Under the pieces are notes generated by a model. That model was not told the DNA's origin. It was given only the letters and a program-made list of their open reading frames with translations, and made no database searches. Shown here piece by piece: positions 910 to 64,000 of a DNA stretch of 64,000 bases. A program made the translations under genes and the position numbers. The number at the start of each line of letters is the position of its first letter. The first letter of the stretch is position 1. This DNA comes from a virus, in the IMG/VR virus record IMGVR_UViG_3300025853_000041, positions 41,182-105,181 of that record, one strand, 5' to 3'.

Positions 910-916
910 TTTTTAT

Positions 917-924
917 TATCTTTG
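917..924 (+). promoter_or_regulatory. Possible Bacteroidota sigma-A -7 box (TAnnTTTG)
   Basis: TATCTTTG lies in the short intergenic gap just before the ATG at 929. No clear -33 TTTG. Confidence 0.4.
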
Positions 925-928
925 TCAG

Positions 929-2163: not shown

Positions 2164-2179
2164 AATAAAATAAGAAATT

Positions 2180-2974: not shown

Positions 2975-2998
2975 ATTATGAAAACAAAAAAATAAATT

Positions 2999-4227: not shown

Positions 4228-4228
4228 A

Positions 4229-4489
4229 ATGGATGGACTAGAAAACAAAGAGGTAACAATTATTGGAAAAGACAATAGTACATTACCAGAAGGAGCAAAG
4301 GTAACAAAGAAAAGAGTTGATATTACAGTAGAACAGATTGAGAATGGATTTATTCTTAAGAAAAACTATGATATAAGCTATACTTTAGGTGGTAAACAAG
4401 ATTATTTATACTACTGTAAAAAAGTTTACAGTGAAGATAACCCTATTGAAATAAAAGAAGATAAAATGCTTGCAGATTATTTCGACTAA
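4229..4489 (+). CDS. Hypothetical protein
   Basis: 86-aa ORF tightly packed in the operon. Confidence 0.6.
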   Translation: MDGLENKEVTIIGKDNSTLPEGAKVTKKRVDITVEQIENGFILKKNYDISYTLGGKQDYLYYCKKVYSEDNPIEIKEDKMLADYFD

Positions 4490-4501
4490 AAATATAAAAA
4501 G

Positions 4502-5413
4502 ATGAGTATGTTAAATTATGTAACTATTGACAGGATATTTTCCAAACTACACAGGGACTTAAGAGGTACTGAAACAAATGAAACTGATGTTATTGAATGG
4601 ATTGGGGAAGCTTTAGATTTCTTAAAAGTACCTCAAGTACTTGAAGAGAGGGTAGCTATTGTTACTGTATCTGATTATCACGCTGAGATACCTGATAATT
4701 TACATATGGTTACTCAGATAGCAAGAAATAATAGTTGGACAAAATCTTGTGCCTGTGAAGGAGCATGTGCTTGTACAACAGAAGAAACAGTGGTGGAAAC
4801 TGCTACTCCCTGTGACGAGGACCCATGTAATACTGTAAATCCAGAAATTACTTTAGATGATTGGTCCTATACAATCTGGACCAGTTCAGAGCTATACCAA
4901 AGAAATTATACTCCTGTCAGGCTTGCCACAGGAAGTTTTTTCAACAATTTAGTATGTAAAGAAAAAGATTTATCTCTATATTTGACCTGTGAGGATGAAT
5001 ATACCATTGTGGGTACTACTTGTAAGAGGCTTAGATTTAATTTTATTGAAGGTCAGGTAGCTATTTCTTATTTAAAGAATGTGGCAGATGAAGATACTGG
5101 ATATCCTTTAATACCTGAGAACATCTCTTATATAACAGCAATCACTTATTATATCAAGTGGAAGTTAGCTGAATTATTTGAATGGGCAGGCAGAGAAGGT
5201 TGGGCAGGTAAGGCAGAAAAAGCTGAACAAAGATGGCTTAAGTATGCAAGACAAGCAAAGAACCAACAAAAAATGCCAAAGACTTTAGATGAATATCAAA
5301 ATCTTTTAGAGCAAACACACTACTTAATTCCAAATCACAAGAGATATTATGGTTACTTTGGAAACTTAGGTAAAAGCCAAACAAGACAATTTAATAATTT
5401 TAATCGAGTATAA
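4502..5413 (+). CDS. Tail tubular/ring protein (P22 gp4-like, crAss Ttub)
   Basis: DVIEWIGEAL and DEDTGYPLIP...AITYYI motifs; immediately upstream of the stabilisation protein. Confidence 0.7.
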   Translation: MSMLNYVTIDRIFSKLHRDLRGTETNETDVIEWIGEALDFLKVPQVLEERVAIVTVSDYHAEIPDNLHMVTQIARNNSWTKSCACEGACACTTEETVVETATPCDEDPCNTVNPEITLDDWSYTIWTSSELYQRNYTPVRLATGSFFNNLVCKEKDLSLYLTCEDEYTIVGTTCKRLRFNFIEGQVAISYLKNVADEDTGYPLIPENISYITAITYYIKWKLAELFEWAGREGWAGKAEKAEQRWLKYARQAKNQQKMPKTLDEYQNLLEQTHYLIPNHKRYYGYFGNLGKSQTRQFNNFNRV

Positions 5414-8400
5414 TGGCAAAGAAAATAACAGAAACTGGTATAGGGCTACATTTAGATAGTGCTATCGTAGAAAGACCTAAAGGAACTTATAGATATGCCC
5501 TCAATGCAGTTATGGAAACTGACCTTGGGGACATTTCTCTTTTATCTAATGAAGAAAGTAATGAGCCCTGTGCCTATTTGCCACAAGGTTACACTCCTCT
5601 TGGAAAAGTTTATATTGGTGATAATAGAACTGCTATATTTTCAAAAAGTGCTGATGGTTTACTTGATGAGATAGGTATATTAGATAATGCTTGTACATAT
5701 ACTACACATGTAAATGGGGATTTAGGTTTTAGTATAAACCACCAGATAGATGCTACATACAGATTAAGAAGAGGATGTGAAACTACAATTTACTGGGTAG
5801 ATGGAAAGAACAATAAACCTATGTATTATGTATTTGAAAAACCTCAACAATTTAAAGATGGAGCTGGAGATTGGCTTAAAACAAAATTTGAACTTCAAAG
5901 AAGTTATAGAAAAGTACCAAAATTTGAAGATGTAATTTTACAGAATTCAGGTGGTGCTCTTCCTCCAGGGTCTTACAATATTGCAGTACAATATTTAGAT
6001 GAAAATCTCAATCCTACTGAGTGGATTGCCACATCAGAGGTAATTATTTGCTATGGGGATGATACCACAGAAGCATATTTAGAAATTGAAGGAGAGATTA
6101 ATATTGCAGAAGGAGCAGATGTAGAAGATTATAGAACTTTTGGAGATACAGATAAGTCTATAAAAGTAGTGATGGATAATTTAGATGAAACTTTTTTATA
6201 TTATCGATTAGCTTTTATAGGAGCAAACAATGGTAGTGGTCAAATTAATGAAATCCATTTTACTGAAAAACTGCCAACTCAAAACAATATTTTTATATAC
6301 ACTGGAACAAATTTTGAAACAGAGGGTACTCTTGAAGAGATAGCTGAATTCAACAGTATAATTGAATCAGCAGGAAGTATAGAACAAGCAGACAATATAT
6401 TAATTTTAGGTAACACTCAAGGAAAACAAATAAACTATTGTAATCTGCAAAGATATGCTTCTCGAATAAATACAGATTTGGTCACTAAAAAAGTGTTCAC
6501 AAATCAAATGGTTGATGAAGCTAATCCAAAATACCCAACAGCCAGATTTAATGGTGTAGGGTATCAGCCAGGGGAAATATACTCTTTAGGAGTTGTGTAT
6601 GTATTTGGAGATGGTACACAAACTCCTGTATATCATATTCCTGGAAAAAACCCTACTATTTTAGATTCAGGATTAAACAATGTCTCTCAAGATTTTGTTT
6701 TTGCTCCTGGAGAAAATGTATATCCTATGTCTCCTGATAATGAGAGTCTTAACAGTGTGTACAGTGATAATGATACTTGTTCAAATTCAGACTATTGGGG
6801 TACAGATTCCATAGGAGATGCACTAAAATTTTCAAAAGTAAGACACCACAGATTTCCAAAAAGAAGTGAGTTAGGTATTGATTTTGTAAATGTAGAAACT
6901 GTTATTGGTGGAGACACAACTTTTTACCAAGTCTCTTTAAATATAACTGGAAATTTAGTTACAAACTGGATTTGTGATGAGGCAGGGGTGACTGCTGGAA
7001 CATGTAGTGTAGTAGGAGAACAAGTACCTATGCCAACATTCCAAGCAAGAGTCACTTTTGATGTTGATGGTGTAACTGACTATTTAATTGTAAATATTAA
7101 TCCTTCAGATTATATTGAGTCAGGTTTGACTACTGCTATTAATATTACAGAATACTCAGACTATTATACCACACCTTTAATTACTATCACTAACATAGAA
7201 GAAAGTTTAGATGATGGCACAAGTGCAAGTATTGGAGTAAGTTCAGGAACAGGAGATGCAGAACATGGGCTTCTTAGTTATCAAGCTGCTTCAGGAACTG
7301 CTGTCTTTACAGCAGAAACAAAAATATATTCAACACAAATTTATGGGTTGAAATTTTCAAACATTGAATTACCACCTACTTCAGTAACAAATGGAGAGAA
7401 AATTATTGGTTATTATATTGTTAGAAATGAGAGAACCGAAGAAGAAAAAACTATTTTAGACACTGCTGTTTTAACTCCTTCTACTATCAACGAAAAATAT
7501 ATTGCTCATGGATTACTATATCCTGAGTTTGGGACACTTGATAGAAAAATCTCAGATAGGGTATTTGGATTAATCTCACCTGAATTTCTTTTTGAAGGTA
7601 AGAAATATCCTGAGTTCACTAGCTTAAAACAAGAAGGTAGATTCAGTGTTATTGACAGACTAAAAAGTAAATCGAGATATCTTGATATCACTGATGGGAG
7701 TAGTTATGATTCTTCAGTACATAAAAGTGGTGGAGGTAAAGATAAAGATGGTTGGTCAATAAAAGCCATCACAAGAGATAATATAACAGAATTTGAAAAA
7801 GTATATGATGATTTCAACTTAGTACAAGATGATGTAGAAGATATTTTTTATTTAGATGCTTTACAAAGTCGAGACATTGAAGATGATTCTTTTTCTGTAT
7901 TTAATATTGCAGGAGACAACAAAGTGGGTATTTTACAATTAAAAGAAGACACTAGTGCTGTAATTGATAACACTCTCCCTTATGTATATTTAGAAAGACC
8001 AATTGCAGATTCTTATTCTACATTTAGGTCACTTCCTTATTATAAGGTTAGTCAAAACCTTCATGAATTTTATTTAGCTGATGGTGAGACATATGACCCA
8101 GCTAGTGCTGAAGCCACTTTATTTAATGGTGATACTTATATTACAGCTTTGAGATATTTGAATACAGTATGGTGGGACAATAGAGTAGCTAAAAGAGCAG
8201 GAAGAACTTCTGTTTGGGATTACATTATTGGAGCTATTTTACTTGTAATAGGGACTATCTTACTAATATTTGGTGGGTCTGGAGCTCTTGTTATAGGAGC
8301 TGGTATCGCAATTATAGGAGGTTCATCCTTATTTGTTTCATCAGGTATCAGAAGAGATGCTTTGGTAAGAGCTTATTATGATGAGTATGATAAAGGACTT

Positions 8401-11253
8401 AGAGAAACTTTATTAGATGATTGGATAAACTATGAGTATATTGATTTACCTTGTGATAGAGGTGGGAGCAATAAGTGTCATACCCCTGAAGATGATGAGA
8501 TAGAGTGGGCTGCTGACTGTGTAACAGACATGTGGTTTGAATCTCAGGTTAACATATCTTTAAGATATGGAATGAGTTCAAGACCTTCTACATTCTTAGC
8601 TGCTCCAGGTAAAATAGAATCTGGAAATGATTTCTTAGAACGACACTATGAACATTTTGATATCTATAAACAAAGAGATGTATCTATTTATCCTTTTACA
8701 AAATTAGATTCTCATATAATGGAGAAACTTATAACATTCAATCCTGAAAGAGAAGACAGTAAAGAGTATATAGGACACCCATTAGGAGAGTGGTATAAGA
8801 TAAACCCTGATTATAAAAGAACTAACAAAGAGAAAGTGTTTTTTCACTTACCTCTTGAATATGACTGTTGTTCAGAGTGCCAAGAAGATTTTCCTCATAG
8901 GATTAATTACTCACAACAATCTTATCAAGAAGAACTTACTGATAATTTTAGAGTGTTTTTACCTAATAATTATAGAGACATAGAGGGAGAGACAGGGCAA
9001 ATTACAGATTTGTTCAGAATTAAAAATAATATATACATACACACTGAAGAAGGATTGTGGCACCAACCTCAAAACTTTCAAGAGAGAGTTACTGGAGATA
9101 TTGTATCCTTTCTTGGTACAGGAGAATATTTTAGTACTCCTCCAAGAAAAATATTAGATGATAATAAAGCATCAGGTGGTTCAAGGCATAAAGATGCAAC
9201 TATTAAAACTAAACATGGTGTATTCTTTCCTTCTGAAAATGAAGGGAAAGTATATGTTTTTGATGGTAATGAGTTGAAACCTATTAGTGACCTGGGACTC
9301 AACTCCTGGTTCTCTGAAAATGGTAAAATTCAATTGCTTTCAGATTATTATGAGACTACTGGAAGACCTTATCCTTATGATAGTAATCCTTCTAATGTAG
9401 CAGGAGTAGGGTATGTAGCAGTTTATGATAGTTTAAAGGAAAGATATATTCTTACAAAACAAGACAGAATTCTTGCTGATACAATCACAGGAGACACTGA
9501 GATATGTGTAGATAACAATGGTAATACAATTTTGATAGCAGACTATCAAGCAACTATTGATACTTATGAAGGTAATGGATGGACATTTTTAGGTCTTGAA
9601 AACTGTCAACTAAAATTTGAAAAAATTACTTATACAACTGAAACAATAACAGGAGAAGTAACAGCAGAAGAACCTTTACCTAATGATGTAGATATTCATG
9701 TATTCTATGATACTTCAGGTTCTTTTGATGCAGCAGGGTTAGCTCAGTTACATGCAACTGTTGATGCTTGGGTAGCTAATTATGGTGCTAGTAATCCTGA
9801 TTGGATTGGTAATGTATATGAATATGATGATGCTACTGAGCAATGGCTTAAGTATGCTGACATTATGGAGAGCACTACATACTTTGGTCAAGACCTTAGT
9901 ACTAAGAATGTGCTAGTTGTTTCATTTTGTAATGAAGCTCAGGGAACTCAGGGTGATGGACCTTACCATGGAGTAGGACCAGTTGACAATCCTCTACCTG
10001 CTGTGGAAGCAACTTTTACTGCTGACTATAATAATTTTACAGAAATTACATACCCTAAGTACTTATCCTTTATAGGTATTCATTATCCTGTTGTATTTGG
10101 ACCAGGTACTCCATCTAGTGATTTAACTAGTTCAAGAAACTTTGTATTACATTCATTAGCAGCATTAAAAGGAGTTCCTTATACTTTAGCTGAAGTAAAT
10201 GCTTTAAGTGAGAATTTAGGTTTTGATACTGGAGAATGGGCAACTTTAAAAGCTTCTTTACAAGGGGCTAATCCTTATCCTAACAATGGTTTAGAAAATT
10301 TTGGTTGGCTGGTACAGGAAGATAGATATGTCTCAGCAGCAGGCAGTATAATCACTCCTGCACAGTTTCAAGAGGACATCACAGCTCTATTAGAAGGAAG
10401 TAATACTACAACAGTTACAGAAACTGTGGTAGAGGTTCAAGTTCCTGTTCTTAATACAGAATTTGTATCTGGAGTTGTAGGAGACATAACTAAAGCTGAT
10501 AATTCGTGGACTATGAGTTTCAACTTAAAGAAAAGTTCTTGGACTTCTTGGCACTCCTATATACCAAACTTCTTTATGCATATTGCAGATAAATTTTGGA
10601 GTTGGAAAATTGGTAAGAAGGCAACAGAGAAAGTTGCAGAAGAACAAAATGTATTTTGGAAGCATAATAAGAAAGGACATTATCAAAATTTCTATGGAGA
10701 AAGACATCCTTTTACAGTAGAGTATGTGTCTATGGAAGATAAACTCAAAACAAAAATTACAGATGATATTCTTTTATATACTGAAGCAAGGAAATATAAT
10801 TCTGCTATGAAGCAATATTTTGACCAAAAAGATGTCACTTTTAATAAGGCTATTTTCTATAATTCAAGTCAATGTACTGGAGAGGTTACGTTAAAAGTTA
10901 AAGATGGACCTTCATTAGACGATAAAAATTATCTTCTTGACCAGGTAATTGATATCTCTGCAGGCACTATTATTATTGATAAAAATGAAAGAGACTGGTC
11001 TATAAACGACTTAAGAGATATAAGAGTAGATATTGACCAACCTATATGGGATGCTGATATAATGTCACGCCAATCTGAATATTATACAGATAAAATATTA
11101 AATGTTTCATCTTTGGATGAAAATAAAGATTGGACTGAATTAGAAAGTTTAAGGGATAAATATTTGGTAGTTAGATTAATATTTGATACTTTTGACGATG
11201 TCAAGTTGATATTGAACTATTCCATTGATTCTCAGACAGATTCCCAAAGGTAA
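5413..11253 (+). CDS. Tail stabilisation/muzzle protein (P22 gp10-like) with hydrophobic hairpin and vWA-like insertion
   Basis: N-terminal GLHLD...YRYALNAV...NEESN, IYWVDG; C-terminal WTSWHSYIP and LRDKYLVVRL; size and synteny match crAss-like Tstab. Confidence 0.75.
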   Translation: MAKKITETGIGLHLDSAIVERPKGTYRYALNAVMETDLGDISLLSNEESNEPCAYLPQGYTPLGKVYIGDNRTAIFSKSADGLLDEIGILDNACTYTTHVNGDLGFSINHQIDATYRLRRGCETTIYWVDGKNNKPMYYVFEKPQQFKDGAGDWLKTKFELQRSYRKVPKFEDVILQNSGGALPPGSYNIAVQYLDENLNPTEWIATSEVIICYGDDTTEAYLEIEGEINIAEGADVEDYRTFGDTDKSIKVVMDNLDETFLYYRLAFIGANNGSGQINEIHFTEKLPTQNNIFIYTGTNFETEGTLEEIAEFNSIIESAGSIEQADNILILGNTQGKQINYCNLQRYASRINTDLVTKKVFTNQMVDEANPKYPTARFNGVGYQPGEIYSLGVVYVFGDGTQTPVYHIPGKNPTILDSGLNNVSQDFVFAPGENVYPMSPDNESLNSVYSDNDTCSNSDYWGTDSIGDALKFSKVRHHRFPKRSELGIDFVNVETVIGGDTTFYQVSLNITGNLVTNWICDEAGVTAGTCSVVGEQVPMPTFQARVTFDVDGVTDYLIVNINPSDYIESGLTTAINITEYSDYYTTPLITITNIEESLDDGTSASIGVSSGTGDAEHGLLSYQAASGTAVFTAETKIYSTQIYGLKFSNIELPPTSVTNGEKIIGYYIVRNERTEEEKTILDTAVLTPSTINEKYIAHGLLYPEFGTLDRKISDRVFGLISPEFLFEGKKYPEFTSLKQEGRFSVIDRLKSKSRYLDITDGSSYDSSVHKSGGGKDKDGWSIKAITRDNITEFEKVYDDFNLVQDDVEDIFYLDALQSRDIEDDSFSVFNIAGDNKVGILQLKEDTSAVIDNTLPYVYLERPIADSYSTFRSLPYYKVSQNLHEFYLADGETYDPASAEATLFNGDTYITALRYLNTVWWDNRVAKRAGRTSVWDYIIGAILLVIGTILLIFGGSGALVIGAGIAIIGGSSLFVSSGIRRDALVRAYYDEYDKGLRETLLDDWINYEYIDLPCDRGGSNKCHTPEDDEIEWAADCVTDMWFESQVNISLRYGMSSRPSTFLAAPGKIESGNDFLERHYEHFDIYKQRDVSIYPFTKLDSHIMEKLITFNPEREDSKEYIGHPLGEWYKINPDYKRTNKEKVFFHLPLEYDCCSECQEDFPHRINYSQQSYQEELTDNFRVFLPNNYRDIEGETGQITDLFRIKNNIYIHTEEGLWHQPQNFQERVTGDIVSFLGTGEYFSTPPRKILDDNKASGGSRHKDATIKTKHGVFFPSENEGKVYVFDGNELKPISDLGLNSWFSENGKIQLLSDYYETTGRPYPYDSNPSNVAGVGYVAVYDSLKERYILTKQDRILADTITGDTEICVDNNGNTILIADYQATIDTYEGNGWTFLGLENCQLKFEKITYTTETITGEVTAEEPLPNDVDIHVFYDTSGSFDAAGLAQLHATVDAWVANYGASNPDWIGNVYEYDDATEQWLKYADIMESTTYFGQDLSTKNVLVVSFCNEAQGTQGDGPYHGVGPVDNPLPAVEATFTADYNNFTEITYPKYLSFIGIHYPVVFGPGTPSSDLTSSRNFVLHSLAALKGVPYTLAEVNALSENLGFDTGEWATLKASLQGANPYPNNGLENFGWLVQEDRYVSAAGSIITPAQFQEDITALLEGSNTTTVTETVVEVQVPVLNTEFVSGVVGDITKADNSWTMSFNLKKSSWTSWHSYIPNFFMHIADKFWSWKIGKKATEKVAEEQNVFWKHNKKGHYQNFYGERHPFTVEYVSMEDKLKTKITDDILLYTEARKYNSAMKQYFDQKDVTFNKAIFYNSSQCTGEVTLKVKDGPSLDDKNYLLDQVIDISAGTIIIDKNERDWSINDLRDIRVDIDQPIWDADIMSRQSEYYTDKILNVSSLDENKDWTELESLRDKYLVVRLIFDTFDDVKLILNYSIDSQTDSQR
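11163..11194 (+). promoter_or_regulatory. Bacteroidota housekeeping-type promoter upstream of the cargo/RNAP genes
   Basis: TTTG (11163-66), 20-nt spacer, TACTTTTG (11187-94): exact TTTG-N19-21-TAnnTTTG consensus about 90 nt before ATG 11282. Confidence 0.55.
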
Positions 11254-53714: not shown

Positions 53715-54788
53715 CTACTTTTCATCTCGCCATGAGTCGAAAAATGCATGCCTTGGGAAGTCTTTGATAGGGGGCATTCCTGTATATTTGAAACTTTTCC
53801 CAATGTAGTTTTCTTTGTTATCTAAAAGTTCTCTTCTGGCATCATGGTCAAAACCATTTAGTCCAACACAGAAAGTTCCTTTTCCTTCAAATTCTACTAC
53901 AAAACCTTTAGCCATTCCACTAGGAATTCTATCAGCTTTTAATTGAGAAGTCTTACTTCTACCTAATTCATTAACTGTTTTCTCAACACCCTCTTTTACC
54001 ATTGTGGCTTCTTCCACATCTAGTATCACACCATCATACTCATTTTTATCATCCTTCATTTTCAGAAGAGTACCTTGATTTAAGGTTGACCTTCCAAATT
54101 TATATGGATGAGTGCTATGAGTAAGTACAAGACCTTCATATCCTTGTTCAAGATTATATTCATATAGAGAATATAGGTCTTCAATAGACTCTGGTTTCAT
54201 TCTATCTGGCATTCTAAGATACATCTCTTCAAAACTATATAAACATAATCTTTTGAAAGCTTCTTGCCATCTCTCTTTGAATCCTATCAAATCTGGTCTG
54301 TCAGTGATAATAAAATCAAATGCAAAACACTCCAAATCTTCATGAAATGTAGTTAAGAATTTAATATCTTTACCTCTGTACTTTTCTTGAAATGCTTCAG
54401 GTTTTTTCTCTTTCATCTTTGTAAGCTCATCGATATAATCCTGTGTAGTTACATCAGATTTAGAGAAAAACCTAAATATTTCATTGAATGGCATTCCATG
54501 CATATAGAATTCACCTTCAAGAATAATATTATTATCCAAGCAAACTTGATTCAGTTTAGCAAATCTTGCCTTAACAAGGTCACTTCCTGGTTCTTTCAGG
54601 CTTCTGGTTAAAACTTTTGGTCCTAAACCAAATTCCATTCTACATCCATCTTTCTTTGGAAAGATTATGTATTCTTCAATCCCACCATTCTTGGCAATTG
54701 TTGCTTCAAATGCTGTCTTATCAAATGACCCATCTTTAGGGGCATTTGGTATTAAATTCGGTTTAAACTTTATTGGTATATTTCCCAT
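53715..54788 (-). CDS. ATP-dependent DNA ligase
   Basis: KKDGCR, EGEFY, FDFI, EGLVL and LLKMK motifs. Confidence 0.85.
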   Translation of the reverse strand: MGNIPIKFKPNLIPNAPKDGSFDKTAFEATIAKNGGIEEYIIFPKKDGCRMEFGLGPKVLTRSLKEPGSDLVKARFAKLNQVCLDNNIILEGEFYMHGMPFNEIFRFFSKSDVTTQDYIDELTKMKEKKPEAFQEKYRGKDIKFLTTFHEDLECFAFDFIITDRPDLIGFKERWQEAFKRLCLYSFEEMYLRMPDRMKPESIEDLYSLYEYNLEQGYEGLVLTHSTHPYKFGRSTLNQGTLLKMKDDKNEYDGVILDVEEATMVKEGVEKTVNELGRSKTSQLKADRIPSGMAKGFVVEFEGKGTFCVGLNGFDHDARRELLDNKENYIGKSFKYTGMPPIKDFPRHAFFDSWRDEK

Positions 54789-54805
54789 ATTTTGTGTATT
54801 TTATG

Positions 54806-55063
54806 TTAATGTCCTCCATATACTTGTTTTCCATCTCTGTATACATCGTACCTATTTGTATCTAAATCTCCTGCTTCTTCAGGAGTTATAGTCTCATAAG
54901 GAACATCATCATCAATCTCCCATTGTTCATTAATTTCAAATCCATTTGGAGAAATAAAATCTCCTACATCCTCATCATCTATGTCTTCAGGGACATCTAC
55001 CTCAAATGTCTGAGTTCTGTAATAAACTTCTGTAGCTGTTACTGTCACTTTTCTTGTTTCCAT
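54806..55063 (-). CDS. Acidic hypothetical protein
   Basis: 85-aa coupled ORF. Confidence 0.55.
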   Translation of the reverse strand: METRKVTVTATEVYYRTQTFEVDVPEDIDDEDVGDFISPNGFEINEQWEIDDDVPYETITPEEAGDLDTNRYDVYRDGKQVYGGH

Positions 55064-55512
55064 TACTTCATTGTATTAGTTACACTTGTTCTTCCTTTTC
55101 CTGCTTTCTTAGCTTCAAGGTACTTATCATACCAGTCATCAAATTCATACATGGCTGAGGTACCCTGTCCTTTCTTTAAGAAATAATGTGGATACCTAAT
55201 AAACCGTGAATCTGTTTGAGATAAGTAAAGCTTAACTGTGGCAATCACATCTTCTTTTCTTATCTCTGGTCTAGCTCTGAACATTGCTTTCAATCTCATG
55301 ACTGATTCTTTAACCTTTCCTCCTCTATCAGGATTCTTTGCTTTAAAGAGTGCACAATATTCTGTCTTCACCCATGCCCAAGGGTCATCATCTGCTATAT
55401 CTATTATTATTGAATCATAAATCTTATCAATAACAGATGCAGCAACAAGTTCTTCTCTAGGTGTTACGCAAATTTCTTTTGCAAAGGCTAAAATTTCTTC
55501 TCTTGTTATCAT
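55063..55512 (-). CDS. Hypothetical replication-module protein
   Basis: Coupled ORF; helical, with IRYPHYFL motif. Confidence 0.55.
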   Translation of the reverse strand: MITREEILAFAKEICVTPREELVAASVIDKIYDSIIIDIADDDPWAWVKTEYCALFKAKNPDRGGKVKESVMRLKAMFRARPEIRKEDVIATVKLYLSQTDSRFIRYPHYFLKKGQGTSAMYEFDDWYDKYLEAKKAGKGRTSVTNTMK

Positions 55513-56657
55513 AATACTAAATCTTTAAAATTAAGGTATGATACTTTCTTTGCATCAAAGCTCTTCAATGTTGAAGTTATCCATAATATATCCTGTGTGT
55601 CCTCAAGGCATAATATCCAAATAGTTGCTTCATAGTCTCCCTGTTCTAAGAGAGTCCTAGCAATTTTCTGAGATGTTAGTCCATTGTTATCAGAATCAAC
55701 CTGAGTTAGGATGAGGTTATCAATTGCAGAATAGGTATACCCTGTTCCACCCTTGTTCACCATTGCAATCCTATTAACTTCGCCATTTATGAACTTTTGA
55801 AGGTCCTTACTATTTGTGGTACCGTGGTACACATAGTCTGACAGCTCTTCAGCCTGTTTCCTGTCCATTGCAAAGATTAATTTCGTACCTTCAAGAGAAT
55901 TAATGATATACTTAGCTGCAGCCACTTTGGATGGTGACTTACCTATAAGTCTTCTCCTGTGTAGCAATGCAAACTTAGTTTTACCATTTCTCTCCATCCT
56001 CCTGGTCAAATATTCATACTGCTTAAGTTCAGATGTAGTAAAACTCTTCTCTTGTTTGGTCACCTTATCAGTGTACTTCACTTCAATGTTCATTTTGTCA
56101 TCCATAGGGATACCAACAACCATGATTTTGTAGTTTGATAAGAGACCAATATCAACAGCTGAGTTAATAGAAATTTTATATAACTTCTTGAGTCCCAGCT
56201 GCTCATAGATATCTGTCTTCGATTGTGTCTTACTCTCTGTCCCTGTCATCGATAGCAACACATCCCATGTTAAGCTTCCTTCTAATAGTCCTACTGCATT
56301 AACTGGTGTAATAAACTGCTCTTCATCTAACACAATAAGTGCATAATGTCCTTTCAATTTATTTAAACCTTTCCAAGTACTAGTAGTTAGTTGCTTAAGA
56401 TATGTTTTTGCTTTCCATTTTTCAAACTCAAGAGGTATATCCTCATCAGCTAGCTTAGATGTTGGTGTAACCCATAGGATTTTACCTTTTACCTTATGCT
56501 TTTTGATGTAATCTATAACAATCTTGGTCTTTCCTGACCTAGGAGCTAAGATAAGCCTACCAGATTCTCCAGCAGGGATAGAATTCACAACATCTTTCTG
56601 TAATTCATTCTTTTCTTTACTTGTCATTTTTGTAAAAATTCTTAAATTTAACCTCAC
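55509..56657 (-). CDS. Superfamily 2 helicase
   Basis: APRSGKT, VLDEEQ, MTGT and QKIAR motifs. Confidence 0.75.
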   Translation of the reverse strand: MRLNLRIFTKMTSKEKNELQKDVVNSIPAGESGRLILAPRSGKTKIVIDYIKKHKVKGKILWVTPTSKLADEDIPLEFEKWKAKTYLKQLTTSTWKGLNKLKGHYALIVLDEEQFITPVNAVGLLEGSLTWDVLLSMTGTESKTQSKTDIYEQLGLKKLYKISINSAVDIGLLSNYKIMVVGIPMDDKMNIEVKYTDKVTKQEKSFTTSELKQYEYLTRRMERNGKTKFALLHRRRLIGKSPSKVAAAKYIINSLEGTKLIFAMDRKQAEELSDYVYHGTTNSKDLQKFINGEVNRIAMVNKGGTGYTYSAIDNLILTQVDSDNNGLTSQKIARTLLEQGDYEATIWILCLEDTQDILWITSTLKSFDAKKVSYLNFKDLVL

Positions 56658-57006
56658 TTTGCATATACCAATCAGACCTTAAGTATTTAGGAAGATTTTG
56701 GATACCTTCTAATCTTGCTATCTCCTCTTGCATTGCATCCTTTTTTTCTTTAAACCTTACTAATTTGTCACAGTCATAGTTTAGTATAGTTTCATACATT
56801 CTTCTAACAATAGTATCAACATTATGCATCAGCTTGCTATCATAATTAACAAAATTATATCTCATAGTCCTGGCAGTGTCTTCTATAAGATATCCGATTT
56901 CATTTTGAATAGTACATATCTCATATTCTATATTAGCATTGTTTGCTTTAAATGTAGAGTCCCAAAATTTTCCTTTGTTATCTATATATCCACATGTCTT
57001 TTTCAT
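56617..57006 (-). CDS. Hypothetical protein
   Basis: Coupled 129-aa ORF. Confidence 0.5.
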   Translation of the reverse strand: MKKTCGYIDNKGKFWDSTFKANNANIEYEICTIQNEIGYLIEDTARTMRYNFVNYDSKLMHNVDTIVRRMYETILNYDCDKLVRFKEKKDAMQEEIARLEGIQNLPKYLRSDWYMQSEVKFKNFYKNDK

Positions 57007-57227
57007 AATTCTTCTAATTTTTTTAAAATGAGTAATTTACGTGCACTATCAAATACAGACTTTGGCTCAAGCTTTTTTATATTCTTTATAAATTTTACTT
57101 TAAGTTCACCTGTTATCTTTCCTCTGTCATTACTTAACAAATACTCCATATTTGTTAGTTGTAGTTCTAATTCGTTCATAATACTGTTTTTAGTGGCATT
57201 CAGCGTAATTGTTTCCCCAATCAACAC
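57003..57227 (-). CDS. Hypothetical protein
   Basis: Short ORF between polA and the next gene; start uncertain. Confidence 0.4.
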   Translation of the reverse strand: MLIGETITLNATKNSIMNELELQLTNMEYLLSNDRGKITGELKVKFIKNIKKLEPKSVFDSARKLLILKKLEEL

Positions 57228-59100
57228 TGCAGCCTATTGTTACATTTAATCCTGTTTCTGCATTCATCTCATCCATTGCTCTCTTAAGTATCACAGCAAC
57301 TTGGAATTTATGTTGTTGCTTACACTTTAGTAGTATCTCATCATGATACTGCAAACTTATCTTGATACCTAACTCATTCAAACCCTGTCTTACTTTCCTG
57401 ACCCAAGAGTCAAAAACATAAACACCAGTAGATTGATTCAAGGTAGAAAACCTGTCCTTATCTGCTTTCAAAAACATCCAAAATCCTGAAACAGGGTTAT
57501 ATAACCACTTCTGCTTATCAACAATTTTGACTCTGCAGTCTTTTGCTGTCTGCTTCACTGCTGCATTCCTCTTCCAATAAGTTGTATGTAGTTTCTTTGC
57601 AAATTTAAGTGTACATTTAAGTGATTCTGCAATTTTAGGTGGTCCTGCTCCATAAGTAGCTGAGAAATTAATCAGTTTTGCCTTCTTTCTTTCAGTATTG
57701 ATGACATTATACCTGTTAGCATCTGCCTCACTCCCATATACGAAATTATCACCCAAACTATCTTTCTCTGCAGAAATTTTTTTATAGAATTCTTCATCTT
57801 CCTTTGTTATTAATTCAGCCAATACAGCTATGTCAATGTGTGGGTCAAATCCTGGAACTCTCATCTCTGTCACATAATCAGGGTCATAAAAGTATATGTA
57901 GTGCTGTTTGGTGTTATCCTCTAGTCCACTAATATCACTTCCACACATGATGTATGTTGTGTCAGGCACCATGAGGCACCCTCTGATTTCTTTCCCATAA
58001 TACTTATCAACTCCAGGCAAGTTAGCTATTGGCTTAGCATGCTGCAATCTTAAAGTATTTGTAAAACCTTGAGCCCTAGAGTAGATGTAACCATTATCAT
58101 CTACACTCTCTAAGAAAGATTTGAACAATCCATATCTATGTCTCGCTCTATAAAGACCTCCAAGCTCTTCCAAAAATGGATACTTCTCAAACATTTCTCT
58201 AATACTGAAACATAGTCCACCACCAAATGGCAATGAAACCTGTGGTATTTTCTTATTTTTCTTATTTACTTTAAAGGTCTTTGGTTCCCAACCTAATTGA
58301 AACAACCAATCTTTTAGCTGTTGAGGTGATGTGGGACTTCCTGGCACTGTGATTTCCTGAGTATTCTCAGGTAAACCTTTCTTCTTCAGTAAGTCAAACC
58401 AACTCTGACCATGGACTGACAAATCACCATCTTTCTTATAGATAATTGCAGGTGGTGTCTTGTCCACAATACGAGGCATGAACTTAGCTAAATTGGAAAT
58501 CTTCTCATCTATAATGAATTCGAGGTCCAAGCTAGATTGCTCAGCAAGCCTGATGTCAAGTTTAATCTTTTCATCTTCTTGCTCCCTTAGGCAATCCATT
58601 TTGTATCCTAAATATCCAATTAGTCTCATTATCTCATTAAAATCACCATAGATTTGCATCAGGTAATCCATCATTGAATGAAAAGTTCTTGCATTAATCT
58701 CCACATCACTCTCACATCTGTCTACATATACTTCTACTGGCAGGTCATCCCAGTCATCTATGACGGGCTTAGGAAAACCCATTCTCTCACCCCAAGCAGC
58801 TAAACCATGTACAAATCCTTTAATAGGGTACAGGTAAAAAGAGATTGCTAGCGTGTCTATTAACGTAGCATCTATCTTGATGTTTAAAATCTTTTCTAGC
58901 ATAGGCACATCATACTCTATTATCTTGTGTCCTACAATAGTCTCTTGTTGGAGAATAAAGTTAGACATATCTGTATAATCAGTAAATGAACCTTTTGCTA
59001 GCAAAGTTTTGTTCTCATAGATAGCATAAGAAAGACAATGAATCAGTGTACCTTTATCAAGAAGCCCATTAGCTTCAATATCAAATATTGTGTACTTCAT
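57190..59100 (-). CDS. polA: Family A DNA polymerase (T7-like, 3'-5' exo plus polymerase)
   Basis: FDIEANG, GHKIIEYD, motif A DISGLE, motif B KLINFSATYG (Phe at the 762-equivalent position), motif C YHDE. Confidence 0.92.
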   Translation of the reverse strand: MKYTIFDIEANGLLDKGTLIHCLSYAIYENKTLLAKGSFTDYTDMSNFILQQETIVGHKIIEYDVPMLEKILNIKIDATLIDTLAISFYLYPIKGFVHGLAAWGERMGFPKPVIDDWDDLPVEVYVDRCESDVEINARTFHSMMDYLMQIYGDFNEIMRLIGYLGYKMDCLREQEDEKIKLDIRLAEQSSLDLEFIIDEKISNLAKFMPRIVDKTPPAIIYKKDGDLSVHGQSWFDLLKKKGLPENTQEITVPGSPTSPQQLKDWLFQLGWEPKTFKVNKKNKKIPQVSLPFGGGLCFSIREMFEKYPFLEELGGLYRARHRYGLFKSFLESVDDNGYIYSRAQGFTNTLRLQHAKPIANLPGVDKYYGKEIRGCLMVPDTTYIMCGSDISGLEDNTKQHYIYFYDPDYVTEMRVPGFDPHIDIAVLAELITKEDEEFYKKISAEKDSLGDNFVYGSEADANRYNVINTERKKAKLINFSATYGAGPPKIAESLKCTLKFAKKLHTTYWKRNAAVKQTAKDCRVKIVDKQKWLYNPVSGFWMFLKADKDRFSTLNQSTGVYVFDSWVRKVRQGLNELGIKISLQYHDEILLKCKQQHKFQVAVILKRAMDEMNAETGLNVTIGCSVDWGNNYAECH

Positions 59101-59117
59101 CTTGTCTCGTGTTTAAA

Positions 59118-59417
59118 TTAAATTTTCTTTATAGAATAGATGTAGATATTGTTGTATCTCTTACTATTCTTCTCAGAGCCTTGGAATAAGAAATCAATCT
59201 CAACAGTTGAACCCTGTTTAATATCTCTCTCTTCAAGCATTTTCAGCTTGCCATTCCTTAACTCTGGAAATAATATTTGCCCATCAGGTGTCTCAATAGT
59301 TAATACACGCTTATAAAGGTCAGGTATTCCATCTCTTTTAATGTGTACTAACTCTCCAACAACATGGACAGTTCCTTTTAAGTTAAAATAACTTTTTTCA
59401 ATATGATTTCTATACAT
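59118..59417 (-). CDS. DUF3127-like OB-fold protein
   Basis: KR.L.I...ELRN...VEIDF.F.GSE...YNNI pattern. Confidence 0.55.
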   Translation of the reverse strand: MYRNHIEKSYFNLKGTVHVVGELVHIKRDGIPDLYKRVLTIETPDGQILFPELRNGKLKMLEERDIKQGSTVEIDFLFQGSEKNSKRYNNIYIYSIKKI

Positions 59418-59421
59418 TTTG

Positions 59422-60735
59422 TTATGCTTTATATAAAATTAGTAGTCGTGCAGCTCTAGTCACAGCTGTATAAAGAAGCCTCTGCTTCTCTGACTTGTTT
59501 CGATTTAGATTCAGATTCTTGATGTTCACTATTGCCTGTTCATAGGTAGAGCCTTGACTCTTATGTACAGTGATAGCATGATTATACGTCATATTAGCAA
59601 ACTGTTCTATGAACTTAAAGTAATCACCCCAATCAATGACCCTGGTCTTAGCCAGCATCTTGAGTTTCTTTAATAGTTTTTCATATTCCTTCTCTGAATC
59701 TTCATGAATTATTATTATCTCATCTACATACTCTTGTGCTTCAATTGAAAATGAGGCATTAATAGAGTAGTATTTGAACTTGATTGAACTAAAGGTAGTT
59801 TCCTTGAGAAAACCTCCACCTTTCCCTGAGGGATAATGAAATGGCTTCTCTTTCACATCTGCCTGCTCCACTTTAATTTCTTGATTGGTATAAAACCCAT
59901 CACCATAAGGACTATTAAATATTAAGGTTTCTCCAACTTCTATCTTTGCAGGTGTACCATATATTCTTTGCCTTACTAAAGTGTTGACTAAATCAACTTC
60001 CTTATTAGTCCATGCTAGATATTTTAGCTCATCAGTTCCATTGACAACTGCTAAGGTCTCTACTACCTGTGCTAAGTCATTACTAAATAGATATCCCATA
60101 TCTTGTGAGTCCATACTAGATTTAACTCTCTTTGATTCTTTAGTTTTGATATCATCTAGATTTCGACTTAGATGTATTATGGGATTCCCTTCTCCCTGTC
60201 TTATAATTTCAGTTAATTCTACCTCTGGGTAACTTGAGGCAAAGATGGGTGACACTAGTTCACCAATAGGATTCAGCTGTTTAGCATCTCCAATAAAAAC
60301 AACTATTGCATTATTTGCATCAGCGTGTTCTTCTACATACGTCAAAAGGTCCTTGTTTAGCATTGAAGCCTCATCTATAATAAGCAGCCCAACATTTTTT
60401 AATGGTGGATACCTTTCACTATAATATGGCTTGAAACTAATAGCACCTGTCTTGTAATTTATTTCCTTTTTAATCTTCAGTGATGAATGCACTGTGGCAA
60501 ATTCAAGGTTAGGGTATTCATCTACCTTACCTTTTACTACTGCAACAGCTTTATTTGTTGGAGCTGATACAATAATCTTCTTAAATGGTATTTTTGTCCT
60601 TAGTCTACTGACCAATTCATTCACCAAGTAAGTTTTACCAACACCTGCACTCCCTGAGATTAAAAGTCTCTTCCCGTTCTCAAGTATAGCTAGACTCTCG
60701 TCTAACTTCTCTTGTTGATGTGCTGTTAAACTCAT
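59422..60735 (-). CDS. Dda/RecD-like SF1B helicase
   Basis: GSAGVGKT, APTNKA, IDEASM, GDAKQL, TVHKSQGST and YTAVTRA motifs. Confidence 0.9.
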   Translation of the reverse strand: MSLTAHQQEKLDESLAILENGKRLLISGSAGVGKTYLVNELVSRLRTKIPFKKIIVSAPTNKAVAVVKGKVDEYPNLEFATVHSSLKIKKEINYKTGAISFKPYYSERYPPLKNVGLLIIDEASMLNKDLLTYVEEHADANNAIVVFIGDAKQLNPIGELVSPIFASSYPEVELTEIIRQGEGNPIIHLSRNLDDIKTKESKRVKSSMDSQDMGYLFSNDLAQVVETLAVVNGTDELKYLAWTNKEVDLVNTLVRQRIYGTPAKIEVGETLIFNSPYGDGFYTNQEIKVEQADVKEKPFHYPSGKGGGFLKETTFSSIKFKYYSINASFSIEAQEYVDEIIIIHEDSEKEYEKLLKKLKMLAKTRVIDWGDYFKFIEQFANMTYNHAITVHKSQGSTYEQAIVNIKNLNLNRNKSEKQRLLYTAVTRAARLLILYKA

Positions 60736-60789
60736 ACTTTATTTCATTTTTATTTCATTTTTGATTTGTGACTCAAAACTCGTGTAGTA

Positions 60790-60830
60790 AAGAAAGAATA
60801 AAGCAAGGTTTCCCTTACTTTATTCTTCTT
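60790..60830 (-). terminator. Intrinsic terminator
   Basis: On the - strand AAGAATAAAGTAAGG-GAAA-CCTTGCTTTATTCTT followed by TCTTT. Confidence 0.7.
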
Positions 60831-60851
60831 ACTAAAATTCACACAAACATC

Positions 60852-61052
60852 TTAATACTCAGAAGCTCTGACTTCCATTGCTGCCATTTGCTCCTTAGTG
60901 TAACCTGGTCCAGTACTGATAAATCTGTCCTGAAATGGATTACACAAAATAAATTTGCCTTTCCGTGTACGTTTAAAGAAGTCCATCCTTTTAAAGGTGG
61001 CATTCCATATTGCTTTTAAATTACCTCTTTTAATGTTTCTTGTATAACTCAT
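60852..61052 (-). CDS. Small basic hypothetical protein
   Basis: Coupled ORF ending just before the terminator. Confidence 0.5.
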   Translation of the reverse strand: MSYTRNIKRGNLKAIWNATFKRMDFFKRTRKGKFILCNPFQDRFISTGPGYTKEQMAAMEVRASEY

Positions 61053-61297
61053 TATTCACTTGGGTATTTAGTATCATCAAAACTATTTGATAATACGGTT
61101 ATTAATTTCTTTACTTGTTCTTGTGTCAATTGAATATAAGGTTGAGTGCTTAGCATTGTAAGCTGAAGCATTCTTCCATTTTCTGCTCCACCATAAAACC
61201 TAGTAATCATCATACCTGTTGGCTCCTTAACGTGCTTTGCAAGAGTAGATTTTTTACTTTCTACTATACCTGCTATTGTTTCAATATGTGTGCTCAT
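61052..61297 (-). CDS. Hypothetical protein
   Basis: 81-aa ORF, TRFYGG motif. Confidence 0.55.
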   Translation of the reverse strand: MSTHIETIAGIVESKKSTLAKHVKEPTGMMITRFYGGAENGRMLQLTMLSTQPYIQLTQEQVKKLITVLSNSFDDTKYPSE

Positions 61298-61311
61298 TTT
61301 TATCGCATAAT

Positions 61312-61980
61312 TTATAAATTTTCTTTAATCCAATTATCATCAAGAGGTTTTGTATGTAAGACAGGAAACGCAAGATAGCCTTCATTTATACCTCTTCTAA
61401 AGGTTTTATTGCCATATGCTATCATTTCTTCTCTACTATACATCTTCTCTTCAACTACAGAAGTGATTGTAACTTCATTGTCTTGGTTTAGTTTGAGTTT
61501 ATCATTACCATAAAACCTTCGTACTCTGTCTTCTGTAAAGCCATCAACATAGCTTTCTTCGTACTCGACCTCCCACTCTCCATCAGGATTAACAACAAAC
61601 TCTTTTAAGAATGATTGTTGTACTTGTGGTACTTGACAAGAATGACTTTTACTTATAGGCATTCTAAGCTTAGGGTCAGTAGTTGCTATGATTTTTCTAC
61701 AAAACTTAAACCTATAATCTTTTTTATGATTAATTAAATGTCTAGTTTCAGTATGTGTTTGAACGCTTTTTTGAGATTCAGTAACAAACATATCAATATA
61801 CCAGTCTCCTTCTTTAATAGGTTCTACCTCTTGAGATACTGTGATGTATAGGTGACACTGAGTTCCATTAGGTTTTCCAACCCTATATTTACCTTCTATT
61901 AAGTACCCTTTGTCATGAGTATATAATGGATAATCCTTATCTTCTGTTGGTAGCGTTACTACCTGTATTTTATGTTTCAT
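61312..61980 (-). CDS. Hypothetical protein, paralogue A
   Basis: Shares blocks HLYITVSQ.VEPIK.GD, CRKIIATTDPKL, KLKLNQDN and WIKENL with the next gene. Confidence 0.7.
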   Translation of the reverse strand: MKHKIQVVTLPTEDKDYPLYTHDKGYLIEGKYRVGKPNGTQCHLYITVSQEVEPIKEGDWYIDMFVTESQKSVQTHTETRHLINHKKDYRFKFCRKIIATTDPKLRMPISKSHSCQVPQVQQSFLKEFVVNPDGEWEVEYEESYVDGFTEDRVRRFYGNDKLKLNQDNEVTITSVVEEKMYSREEMIAYGNKTFRRGINEGYLAFPVLHTKPLDDNWIKENL

Positions 61981-62434
61981 TGTGCCATTTTATAAGTTTT
62001 CTTTAATCCAATCTTCTATTGTACTATATTTAGGAGATAAATCTTTAGGTAAATCAGCTATAATATGTATATCCACTACACCATCTTGAGAATTAAATTC
62101 TCTTGCACTATTAAAAGCATCTGTAAGTTCATCTTTACTATACATCTTCTCTTCAACAGAAGTAATATTAACAGTATTGTCTTGGTTTAGCTTGAGTTTT
62201 GGGTAATCTTCTTTTACTTCCATATCAGTTCCCCACCATTCATCATACTCAACTTCCCACTCTCCATTAGAATTAGCAATAAATTCTTCTAAGAATGATT
62301 GTTGTAGTTGTGGTATCTTCTGATAATTTTTACCCTCTATTCTTGTTATCTGACAATTATAAATCTTACAATTATAATTTTCACCCACATACTTTAAAAG
62401 TTTAGGGTCAGTAGTTGCTATGATTTTTCTACAA
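61670..62434. repeat. Direct repeats shared by the tandem paralogues
   Basis: 33-nt identical TTAGGGTCAGTAGTTGCTATGATTTTTCTACAA at 61670-61702 and 62402-62434, plus shorter shared blocks. Confidence 0.85.
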
Positions 62435-62715
62435 GCTTCATTAGTATAACATAAATGATTATCAGATTCTAAATCATTGGTACTATTAAAGCCTACACAT
62501 TTATGTATAGTAGTAGAATCTCCTACAATAAACAAATCACCTACTTTAATAGGCTCTACATCCTGTGATACTGTGATGTATATGTGTTGAGTGATACTGA
62601 AACTTGTTCTTTTATACATGTCATCTAAATAGGAAGGTGTTTTAGAATCCCCTATTATAGCAATAGGACTGTTATCTTCTGTTGGTAGCATTACTACCTG
62701 TGCTTTATTTTTCAT
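61990..62715 (-). CDS. Hypothetical protein, paralogue B
   Basis: Same conserved blocks as 61312-61980. Confidence 0.7.
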   Translation of the reverse strand: MKNKAQVVMLPTEDNSPIAIIGDSKTPSYLDDMYKRTSFSITQHIYITVSQDVEPIKVGDLFIVGDSTTIHKCVGFNSTNDLESDNHLCYTNEACRKIIATTDPKLLKYVGENYNCKIYNCQITRIEGKNYQKIPQLQQSFLEEFIANSNGEWEVEYDEWWGTDMEVKEDYPKLKLNQDNTVNITSVEEKMYSKDELTDAFNSAREFNSQDGVVDIHIIADLPKDLSPKYSTIEDWIKENL

Positions 62716-62732
62716 TATTCATTTATTTTTAG

Positions 62733-63130
62733 TGGAGACGCTGGGACTCGAACCCAGGTCTTTCACATATCAATAATAATATTTTATACAGCTTCACGTT
62801 TCTTTAAATTCTTTACGCTAGATTAGGACCAACTGTTAAGTTGATGCTCCACCAGATTGTTTTTTTTATCACAGACAGTAACAATCAAATCTATCTGTTG
62901 CATAATCTTAGCTTATGCTGCTATTAAAACTTGACCTCCCATGGTATCTTGCGATACACCTTGGAAATCATTAAGAATGTTGTGAACAACACTCATGTTA
63001 GCTTCAATCTGTGCAGTTTCCTGCGTACTAGTTGTGTTTCCATTTAAGTAAACTCACCTTAGTTTTAGACAGTTATCTCTCTGTGCTGAATATTATTAAA
63101 TCGCTATGAAATCAATTCCATGTCGTCCCC
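62733..63130 (-). ncRNA. ssrA: tmRNA (transfer-messenger RNA), ~398 nt
   Basis: 5' GGGGACG pairs with 3' CGTCTCC-A, giving the G3.U70 Ala determinant. T-arm CTGGG-TTCGAGT-CCCAG preceded by GAC. Internal tag frame 63041-62913 ends ...VLIAA-TAA. CCA is not encoded. Confidence 0.92.
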
Positions 63131-63135
63131 AAATT

Positions 63136-63228
63136 TTACTTCTTTTTAAATAATTTCATTAAATATTTTCGATTACTACATATTACTACCACAGCAATAA
63201 ATAATAGACCTGATATTAGTGTACTCAT
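63136..63228 (-). CDS. 30-aa membrane peptide (not in ORF track)
   Basis: MSTLISGLLFIAVVVICSNRKYLMKLFKKK*; ATGA-coupled to the upstream gene and ends 5 nt before the tmRNA. Confidence 0.45.
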   Translation of the reverse strand: MSTLISGLLFIAVVVICSNRKYLMKLFKKK

Positions 63229-63608
63229 ATCTTTATTAATTTTAATGCTTCTTGTAATCCTTGTTCTAAAGCTTCTTCGTAGCTATTAAACATACCAGAG
63301 TCTATATTTCCAAAATAATAATCATAACTATAAATTGTTGTGCCATTGGTTTTGTTTAAATTAAATGCCCATCCACTTGCATTACACCAAATATCTACAT
63401 CAATATTATGAGTGTCCCTCAACCATTTTTGAAGTAATGATTGGGTTGGTGAGGCAAAGGAACCTACATAACTATTTGGTTTATTATGCATACCTAATTT
63501 AGTACCTGTTAACACACCATCTTCATTATACCTCATTTGAGATAACCCATTAAATCCCTTTTCTTTAGCCAATTTAGCTGTATCAAATGTTATTAGTTGC
63601 TCTTTCAT
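63225..63608 (-). CDS. Conserved Bacteroidota-phage hypothetical protein
   Basis: ITFDTAKLAKEKGF, PTQSLLQKWLR and SYEEALE.GL.EAL pattern. Confidence 0.65.
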   Translation of the reverse strand: MKEQLITFDTAKLAKEKGFNGLSQMRYNEDGVLTGTKLGMHNKPNSYVGSFASPTQSLLQKWLRDTHNIDVDIWCNASGWAFNLNKTNGTTIYSYDYYFGNIDSGMFNSYEEALEQGLQEALKLIKI

Positions 63609-63629
63609 TCTATTTAGTTTTAGTTGTAG

Positions 63630-63800
63630 TTATAGCCAATTAAAGTAAAGAGCTATTTGAATGAATGTTATTGTGCCACCAATCATACTTATAAACCAAT
63701 ACCAAAGTGCATACAATTTGTTCTTTATCTGTTTATCAGAAGCCCAAAATATACCAATAAAAGGTAAATAACTGGCTATTTTTATCCATAGTCTTTTCAT
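63630..63800 (-). CDS. 56-aa two-TM membrane protein (not in ORF track)
   Basis: MKRLWIKIASYLPFIGIFW...LYALWYWFISMIGGTITFIQIALYFNWL*. Confidence 0.5.
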   Translation of the reverse strand: MKRLWIKIASYLPFIGIFWASDKQIKNKLYALWYWFISMIGGTITFIQIALYFNWL

Positions 63801-64000
63801 AATTTCAATATATTATCGTTTTAAAAAAGAAGAGCTGAGAATAAGGATGTGCATCTACACTTAATTCTCATTTAATTGATATTGTAGGTATAGCTTTTAC
63901 CTCTCCAGAATCAAACTCTTTTAATTTAATCTACCCACTCTATTAGTGGACACCAATTTCTATATAATGACACAAGCATACTCCACATAAACCTAAATGG

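Follow-up and report, generated by a model that had tools for sequence, protein, structure and literature searches.

We found that the minus strand of a lytic crAss-like phage of Flavobacteriia, related to Cellulophaga phage phi14:2, encodes a complete one-piece tmRNA of 401 nt, and that its frame of 42 codons is, on the evidence of sequence comparison, a translated tag that is kept by selection as a peptide. The window, i.e. the 64,000-nt stretch of DNA that was analysed, corresponds to bases 41182-105181 of a 105,181-bp virus record. According to structure modelling the tag looks like a three-part peptide, with a short polar start and a 22-residue helix that has one invariant face, a variable and disordered spacer, and a hydrophobic Ala-Ala-COOH end similar to that of the host tags. 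We consider it likely that this is a tmRNA of the working type with a selected 42-residue tag, which depends on the host for tagging, delivers its Ala-Ala end to a ClpXP-type protease and uses the helix as a second recognition element.

The tmRNA matched the Rfam model RF00023 on the minus strand (62730-63130) over model positions 1-374, with 57.4 bits against a cut-off of 47 and an E value of 7e-20. This Rfam result bore out the first-pass annotation, which had called a phage tmRNA from the letters alone. The margin over the cut-off is only 10 bits, which counts against our explanation, and ARAGORN, which the same annotation had proposed as a check, did not detect the gene in the 64-kb window or in the whole 105,181-bp record. 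Consensus folding of 19 aligned family tmRNAs with RNAalifold gave 42 consensus pairs, and compensatory changes were seen in 27 of these. The covarying pairs spanned the acceptor stem, the T arm, the long helix 2 and a 3' hairpin; many of the compensatory changes were found in the T arm (five pairs) and in helix 2 (approximately 20 pairs). The prediction also included one stem of PK1 (ACAG/CUGU), a region that is invariant and hence without covariation signal. The alanine identity pair G3:U was present in 19/19 family members. Coordinates of all features are collected in Table 1.

Table 1. Positions of the tmRNA, its parts and the adjacent gene in the window, with the basis of each assignment.
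Feature	Window positions	Strand	Basis
Complete one-piece tmRNA gene, 401 nt	62730..63130	-	RF00023; 19-member family alignment
Acceptor stem, 5' strand (nt 1-7), including G3 of G3:U	63124..63130	-	G:U at position 3 in 19/19; other acceptor pairs covary
PK1 region with invariant family signature (nt 43-77)	63054..63088	-	Identical across the 19 members of the alignment
Resume context UAAAU (nt 85-89)	63042..63046	-	T85, A86, A87 and G90 invariant; Rfam consensus resume context aligns here
Tag frame, 42 codons, from resume codon GGA	62916..63041	-	Open frame; aligns with 51 other family tags; pN/pS
Codons 11-24, conserved helical core QxxANMxxVxx[IL][LI]N	62970..63011	-	Tag alignment; AlphaFold
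Codons 25-37, variable spacer	62931..62969	-	Hypervariable in sequence and length, many gapped columns; disordered in model
Codons 38-42 (VLIAA), degron-like C-terminal end	62916..62930	-	Ala-Ala end in 50/54 family tags
Stop codon TAA	62913..62915	-	Read from sequence
Helix 5 candidate GCAUAA / UUAUGC, stop codon within stem	62900..62918	-	RNAfold, local segment
Candidate H-type pseudoknot, ACAGA/UCUGU and GAUUG/CAAUC, A-rich loop	62855..62898	-	By inspection; segment replaced in other allele
3' hairpin GCGU ... ACGU	62796..62818	-	Four consensus pairs, compensatory changes in each
Helix 2 3' strand, T arm (62741-62757), acceptor 3' strand (62734-62740), discriminator A	62730..62792	-	Helix 2 and T arm covary strongly
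Gene 15 nt downstream of tmRNA, 241 aa, phrog_15656, function unknown	61990..62715	-	PHROGs

The RNA starts with GGGGACG, and on its 3' side the complementary strand, with the partner of G3, is followed in the window copy by a discriminator A and then by CUA in place of CCA. As CCA is not encoded at the 3' end of the tmRNA, it would need to be added post-transcriptionally. The tag frame takes up 129 of the 401 nt. Downstream of the stop there are 183 nt, and not the roughly 150 nt that had been estimated in the first-pass annotation; about 66 nt of these belong to helix 2 and the tRNA-like domain, which leaves about 117 nt separating the stop from the 3' strand of helix 2. In this last segment one candidate H-type pseudoknot was found by inspection, together with one covarying hairpin, and the room for three pseudoknots (PK2-PK4) is probably absent in approximately 117 nt.

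The Rfam consensus resume codon aligned to the GGA at 63041-63039, from which 42 codons are open up to the stop TAA at 62915-62913. Translation of 62916-63041 on the minus strand gave exactly the residues listed in the first-pass annotation, followed by TAA, and both the context UAAAU-GGA and the in-frame TGA five codons upstream that it had described are present in the sequence. Read in the two remaining frames, this stretch of 129 nt contains 3 and 5 stops. By base composition alone 42 open codons are expected about 3% of the time, but the family comparison makes chance irrelevant as an explanation of the open frame. The resume context occupies nt 85-92, with GGA starting at nt 90, and U85, A86, A87 and G90 were invariant among the 19 aligned relatives. 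The E. coli tmRNA likewise has U85 and A86 ahead of its resume codon at G90, and there A86 is chiefly responsible for setting the frame (PMC2481249). The chromosomal tmRNAs of Cellulophaga, Flavobacterium, Maribacter, Winogradskyella and Aquimarina have UAAUU-GGC or UAAAC-GGC at nt 95-98, followed by a tag of 9 codons. The phage context matches these host contexts, indicating that the phage uses the Bacteroidota-type resume signal of its own host phylum. The stretch from the upstream TGA to the conserved core contains no ATG, GTG or TTG, and translation of these codons can thus not be put down to ordinary initiation.

Local folding with RNAfold placed the last Ala codon and the stop in the 5' strand of the hairpin GCAUAA/UUAUGC. 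The second tmRNA of the record, described below, has GCAUAG/CUAUGU at this place, which is a compensatory change relative to the window copy (UAA/UUA to UAG/CUA), and a hairpin over or just past the stop was seen in most family members. Rfam mis-places helix 5 on another hairpin inside codons 16-23, which counts against our explanation. This is a strong 8-bp hairpin with a UUCA loop at 62975-62994, present only in members with the core VVHNI. RNAalifold found no consensus structure inside the tag frame in the 19-member alignment, and the hairpin of codons 16-23 was not conserved.

The family was collected with a pattern made from the invariant PK1 region, and all tags were read from the same resume point. 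The pattern matched 38 viral contigs and 60 metagenome contigs, and these contained 54 distinct tags, all but one of which were open for 24-49 codons, with a mode of 35. An Ala-Ala end was found in 50 of the 54, and the first residue was Gly in 39 and Asp in 15. With its 42 residues the window tag was tied as sixth-longest, the five longer ones having 44 to 49 residues. The first-pass annotation had regarded its length as exceptional; this holds in comparison to bacterial tags, which have 8-35 residues and usually 10 (PMC3968760), and to the 9-residue tags of the hosts, but not within its own phage family. One metagenome contig of the family, Ga0214168_1041024, has a frame that stops after 10 codons and lacks the Ala-Ala end; it may be a degenerate copy or carry a sequencing error. 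The IMG/VR contig 3300048835_000649 has a tmRNA on its minus strand (approximately 2717-2746) with the same PK1 signature and resume context, whose tag of 49 residues is unrelated and without the QxxANM core, but still ends in IAA.

In an alignment of 52 tags, Q11, A14, N15 and M16 were invariant, V19 was found in 51/52, and A41 and A42 were nearly invariant. The codons of the conserved core varied only synonymously (CAA/CAG, GCA/GCT/GCC, AAC/AAT, GTT/GTA), and the mean column entropy at codon positions 1, 2 and 3 was 0.80, 0.65 and 1.12, respectively. The pooled pN/pS was 0.55 in the tag frame as compared to 1.05 and 1.25 in the shifted frames. Peptide-level conservation begins at the first codons of the frame, and the resume codon is thus not located close to the 3' end, a placement that would have given a tag of ordinary length and that the first-pass annotation had named as the outcome speaking against a long tag. 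The median pairwise dN/dS of 0.43 is only moderate, which counts against our explanation and results from the spacer being nearly free to vary. The window copy carries all three marks of the family, namely the PK1 signature, the QxxANM core and the hydrophobic Ala-Ala end. Its C-terminal residues QVLIAA depart from the family consensus ELAVAA, which also counts against our explanation; the last three residues are IAA in the window tag and mostly VAA or MAA in the family.

AlphaFold2 with the 52-tag alignment predicted a single helix over residues 6-27, with a pLDDT of 87 over residues 11-20, and residues 28-42 were predicted to be disordered, with a pLDDT of about 50 in the spacer. On a helical wheel Q11, I12, A14, N15, M16, V19, I22 and L23 fall in one arc centred near 76 degrees, and the opposite face (positions 13, 17, 20 and 24) is free to vary. 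The hydrophobic moment of the helix was moderate (0.3-0.4), so that the helical amphipathic middle proposed in the first-pass annotation was recovered as a predicted, moderately amphipathic helix. A one-sided conserved helix, a variable spacer and an Ala-Ala end would be compatible with a bipartite recognition signal. The tag profile gave no match against PDB sequences. Against 1.84 billion proteins it matched 82 clusters, all of them ORFs of 24-94 aa whose end coincides exactly with that of the match; the 11 clusters inspected were all mis-called ORFs over tmRNA genes. A real protein family that shares the tag motif was not found among the 1.84 billion proteins.

A second RF00023 match, with a tag of 40 codons, was found at bases 7947-8326 of the record. 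BLAST showed that record bases 1-9652 are collinear with 95666-105104, in blocks of 72-98% identity; in the window, positions 54485-64000 (record 95666-105181) are the collinear copy of record 1-9652. The terminal repeat begins at the first base of the contig and reaches within 77 bases of the last one. Real terminal repeats are identical. It is likely that a circular genome of about 96 kb was assembled once around and then into the version of a second strain. Such wrap-around co-assembly of two strains would make the two tmRNAs alleles and not paralogues; a paralogous second tmRNA was rejected on account of the collinearity of the record ends. Identity between the two tmRNAs is 97% for nt 1-158 and 99% for nt 278-401, and drops to about 50% in the part between. 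The replaced middle (nt 159-278, window 62853-62972) comprises the spacer and the degron together with helix 5 and the first downstream fold. In both alleles the frame stays open and the tag ends in Ala-Ala, and in helix 2 the two differ by C23-G364 versus U-A. These comparisons point to a modular exchange of the C-terminal half of the tag between alleles.

Adjacent to the tmRNA and in the same orientation lie genes for a family A DNA polymerase, an SSB-like protein and a Dda-like helicase, together with genes of unknown function, and a search of eight neighbouring genes with Pfam and PHROGs returned a replication module and unknown families only. No SmpB was found in the 105-kb record, and the tmRNA would thus depend on SmpB, AlaRS and EF-Tu of the host. 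The record is also without any tRNA gene despite its tmRNA; Calle_1, another carrier of the family, has 20 tRNAs. Downstream of the tmRNA there are tandem paralogues of phrog_15656 (61990-62715 and 61312-61980), starting 15 nt past the tmRNA with no terminator between. Homologues of phrog_15656 were present within approximately 4.5 kb of the tmRNA in 13/42 family loci. For this neighbour no Pfam match was obtained and ESM Atlas scores were below 0.8, and its single-sequence AlphaFold model, with a pLDDT of 38, was unusable. No gene was found with the tmRNA on every backbone among the 42 loci; the most frequent neighbours were a protein of 51-66 aa (19 loci) and phrog_15656 (13 loci). A candidate partner for the tag helix was not found among the neighbours, and this counts against the proposed role of the helix. 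A scan for sigma-70 promoters and terminators gave fewer sites than shuffled sequence and is uninformative for this locus; promoters of Bacteroidota differ from the sigma-70 model in any case.

This tmRNA lineage is restricted to phage DNA. The PK1 signature was found in 0 of 185,579 bacterial and archaeal species genomes, and no prophage or host source was found there. The tmRNA region matched Cellulophaga phage phi14:2 (Crassvirales, Steigviridae), phi38:1, phi40:1, Calle_1 (Pervagoviridae) and 29 FpV4-type phages of Flavobacterium psychrophilum. The family is present on at least three unrelated phage backbones. The PK1 signature, the resume context, the QxxANM core and the hydrophobic end of the window copy are shared by phi14:2, by phi38:1 and Calle_1, and by Flavobacterium phage FpV4 and its relatives (Fipvunavirus), whose tags from the same resume point have 38, 30 and 35 residues, respectively. 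In comparison to these isolated phages the window copy has a longer tag, a spacer of its own and an LIAA end.

In the GenBank record of phi14:2 the tmRNA locus (2971-3442) lies under three small CDS annotated as hypothetical proteins and the tmRNA itself is unannotated. Nothing is annotated at the FpV4 locus (2961-3375), and the tmRNA of phi38:1 is likewise unannotated. The Calle_1 record has the gene annotated as a tmRNA, with the tag not stated, and the paper describing Calle merely counts it (PMC8776804). ARAGORN missed the FpV4 gene and shortened the tag of phi14:2 to 11 residues; the tag that it assigned to Calle_1 was also too short. Approximately 2.3% of phage genomes carry a tmRNA (PMC9004378). 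According to a tmRNA database paper from 2025 the commonest tag length is 10, and long phage tags are not discussed in it (PMC11915505). We found no published description of the conserved tag core.

By analogy with known tmRNA action, the RNA would be charged with alanine by the AlaRS of the host and delivered by host SmpB and EF-Tu. In the infected cell it would enter stalled ribosomes and add Ala and the 42 residues to the unfinished chain. The Ala-Ala end would still feed an AAA+ protease of the ClpXP type, and the conserved face of the helix may provide a further recognition site, bound by an adaptor, by another protease or by a phage factor, much as SspB binds its site in the E. coli tag. 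The first-pass annotation had suggested adaptor or protease re-routing, chaperone recruitment or rescue from host defences as possible roles of the extra residues. Proteins rescued during infection would then differ, in fate or in kinetics, from those tagged by the host tmRNA, and these phages probably decide themselves on the fate of unfinished proteins. We also put forward, more tentatively and as a possibility to which we give somewhat less than even weight, that the invariant helix face is a docking site for a host factor or one chosen by the phage, that lytic phages of Flavobacteriia thereby re-route, and do not merely rescue, the products of stalled ribosomes, and that the spacer-degron cassette is swapped between strains as a module. 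If re-routing occurs, it could for example lead to faster clearance of host fragments generated by phage or defence nucleases, or to diversion from the normal protease of the host.

Other explanations of the tag and the gene were weighed against the same data. It is very improbable that the ribosome resumes internally and that the real tag is short, e.g. 18 residues from CUUAAU-GAU at codons 23-25, or fewer from a site nearer the stop. ARAGORN chose such internal points in phi14:2 and Calle_1, and the ILN codons recreate a UUAAU-G or UUAAAU-G context in frame in several members; it is this mimicry by the Ile-Leu-Asn codons (UUAAUU-GGU in phi14:2, CUUAAU-GAU in the window copy) that accounts for the short tags given by the program. 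However, the look-alike context is missing in many members, which have other residues there, and the strongest peptide conservation lies upstream of the internal sites, where variation is synonymous only. The context at nt 85-90 furthermore stands directly after PK1, as it does in E. coli and in the hosts. Alternatively, the long frame could be translated with only its Ala-Ala end being of importance, the helix reflecting a constraint on the RNA or acting as a passive spacer, e.g. one that lets the degron clear the ribosome tunnel. The wobble at third positions under invariant amino acids is a signature of protein selection and the conservation follows one helical face, both of which make this explanation improbable; the hypervariable spacer would fit it, and so would the strong hairpin within codons 16-23 in the window copy and its closest relatives, but that hairpin is not family-wide and the frame has no consensus structure.

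A helix that serves something other than degradation is unlikely, but of these alternatives it is the one that we would give most weight. The helix could mask the degron, act on the host protease by saturating or inhibiting it, cause truncated host proteins to aggregate or to associate with membranes, or provide particular phage proteins made from stop-less messages with a functional C-terminal module. Such roles would be in line with the moderately amphipathic character of the helix and with the confinement of the family to lytic phage DNA, observations that serve the docking of an adaptor equally, whereas the retention of Ala-Ala-COOH in 50/54 tags argues that proteolysis remains part of the function. 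We give the least weight, hardly any, to the idea that the gene is a decoy or relic whose sole effect is to sequester SmpB or to compete with the host tmRNA. The modules of the RNA look intact, with covariation in the acceptor stem, the T arm, helix 2 and the 3' hairpin, and selection acts on the frame and its end in more than 50 variants; a precedent exists in mycobacteriophage DS6A, which has an element consisting only of a tRNA-like domain that inhibits tmRNA (PMC4131195; PMC11915505). A working tmRNA with a selected, host-dependent tag is thus the explanation that we prefer.

Reviews treat the tmRNA tag as a short degron, with a length of 8-35 residues and commonly about 10, and most work on phage tmRNAs has gone no further than counting them. 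In the phage-only lineage described here, to which the model crAss-like phage phi14:2 belongs, the tag is three to five times as long as that of the host and retains an invariant helical face. Preservation of such a tag across the lineage implies a selected peptide function beyond marking proteins for degradation. As these genes escape standard tools or are given shortened tags by them, they are under-reported in phage annotations. The idea of a peptide function is directly testable in cultured phage-host pairs, i.e. phi14:2 or phi38:1 on Cellulophaga baltica and FpV4 on Flavobacterium psychrophilum.

Among the known phage-encoded rescue RNAs are those of the mycobacteriophage Bxz1 group and of Bacillus phage G, the two-piece tmRNA of Melnitz and the pelagimyophages, and those of huge phages (PMC9004378, PMC4131195, PMC7162821). 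These come from lineages unrelated to the family described here, and tag conservation was not analysed in the papers on them (PMC9004378, PMC4131195, PMC7162821). Long tags are also found in Mollicutes; the SsrA tag of Mesoplasma florum is read by Lon, and its extra length carries the protease specificity (PMC9382460). The phage tag resembles the Mollicutes tags in being much longer than 10 residues. The latter, however, end in NYAFA and occur in bacteria without active ClpXP, whereas the phage tag ends in LIAA and has no similarity to them; the window tag was accordingly not placed in this Lon-directed class.

The chromosomal tmRNAs (SsrA, RF00023) of the Flavobacteriaceae Cellulophaga, Flavobacterium, Maribacter and Winogradskyella have 391-398 nt as compared to 401 nt in the phage. 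They share with it the tRNA-like domain with G3:U, the type of resume context (UAAUU or UAAAC in the hosts) followed by a GGN glycine codon, and the Ala-Ala end of the tag. Their tag has 9 codons (GENNYALAA, with the end ALAA) as compared to 42, the sequence of PK1 is unrelated, and the stretch from the stop to helix 2 is approximately 205 nt in these hosts and approximately 117 nt in the phage. The E. coli SsrA tag is bipartite, with an N-terminal part that binds SspB and an LAA-COOH end that binds ClpX. As a functional analogy, the phage tag would likewise combine an upstream recognition element with a C-terminal Ala-Ala degron. The two tags have no sequence similarity, and the upstream element of the phage tag is a predicted helix of 22 residues, separated from the end by a variable spacer.
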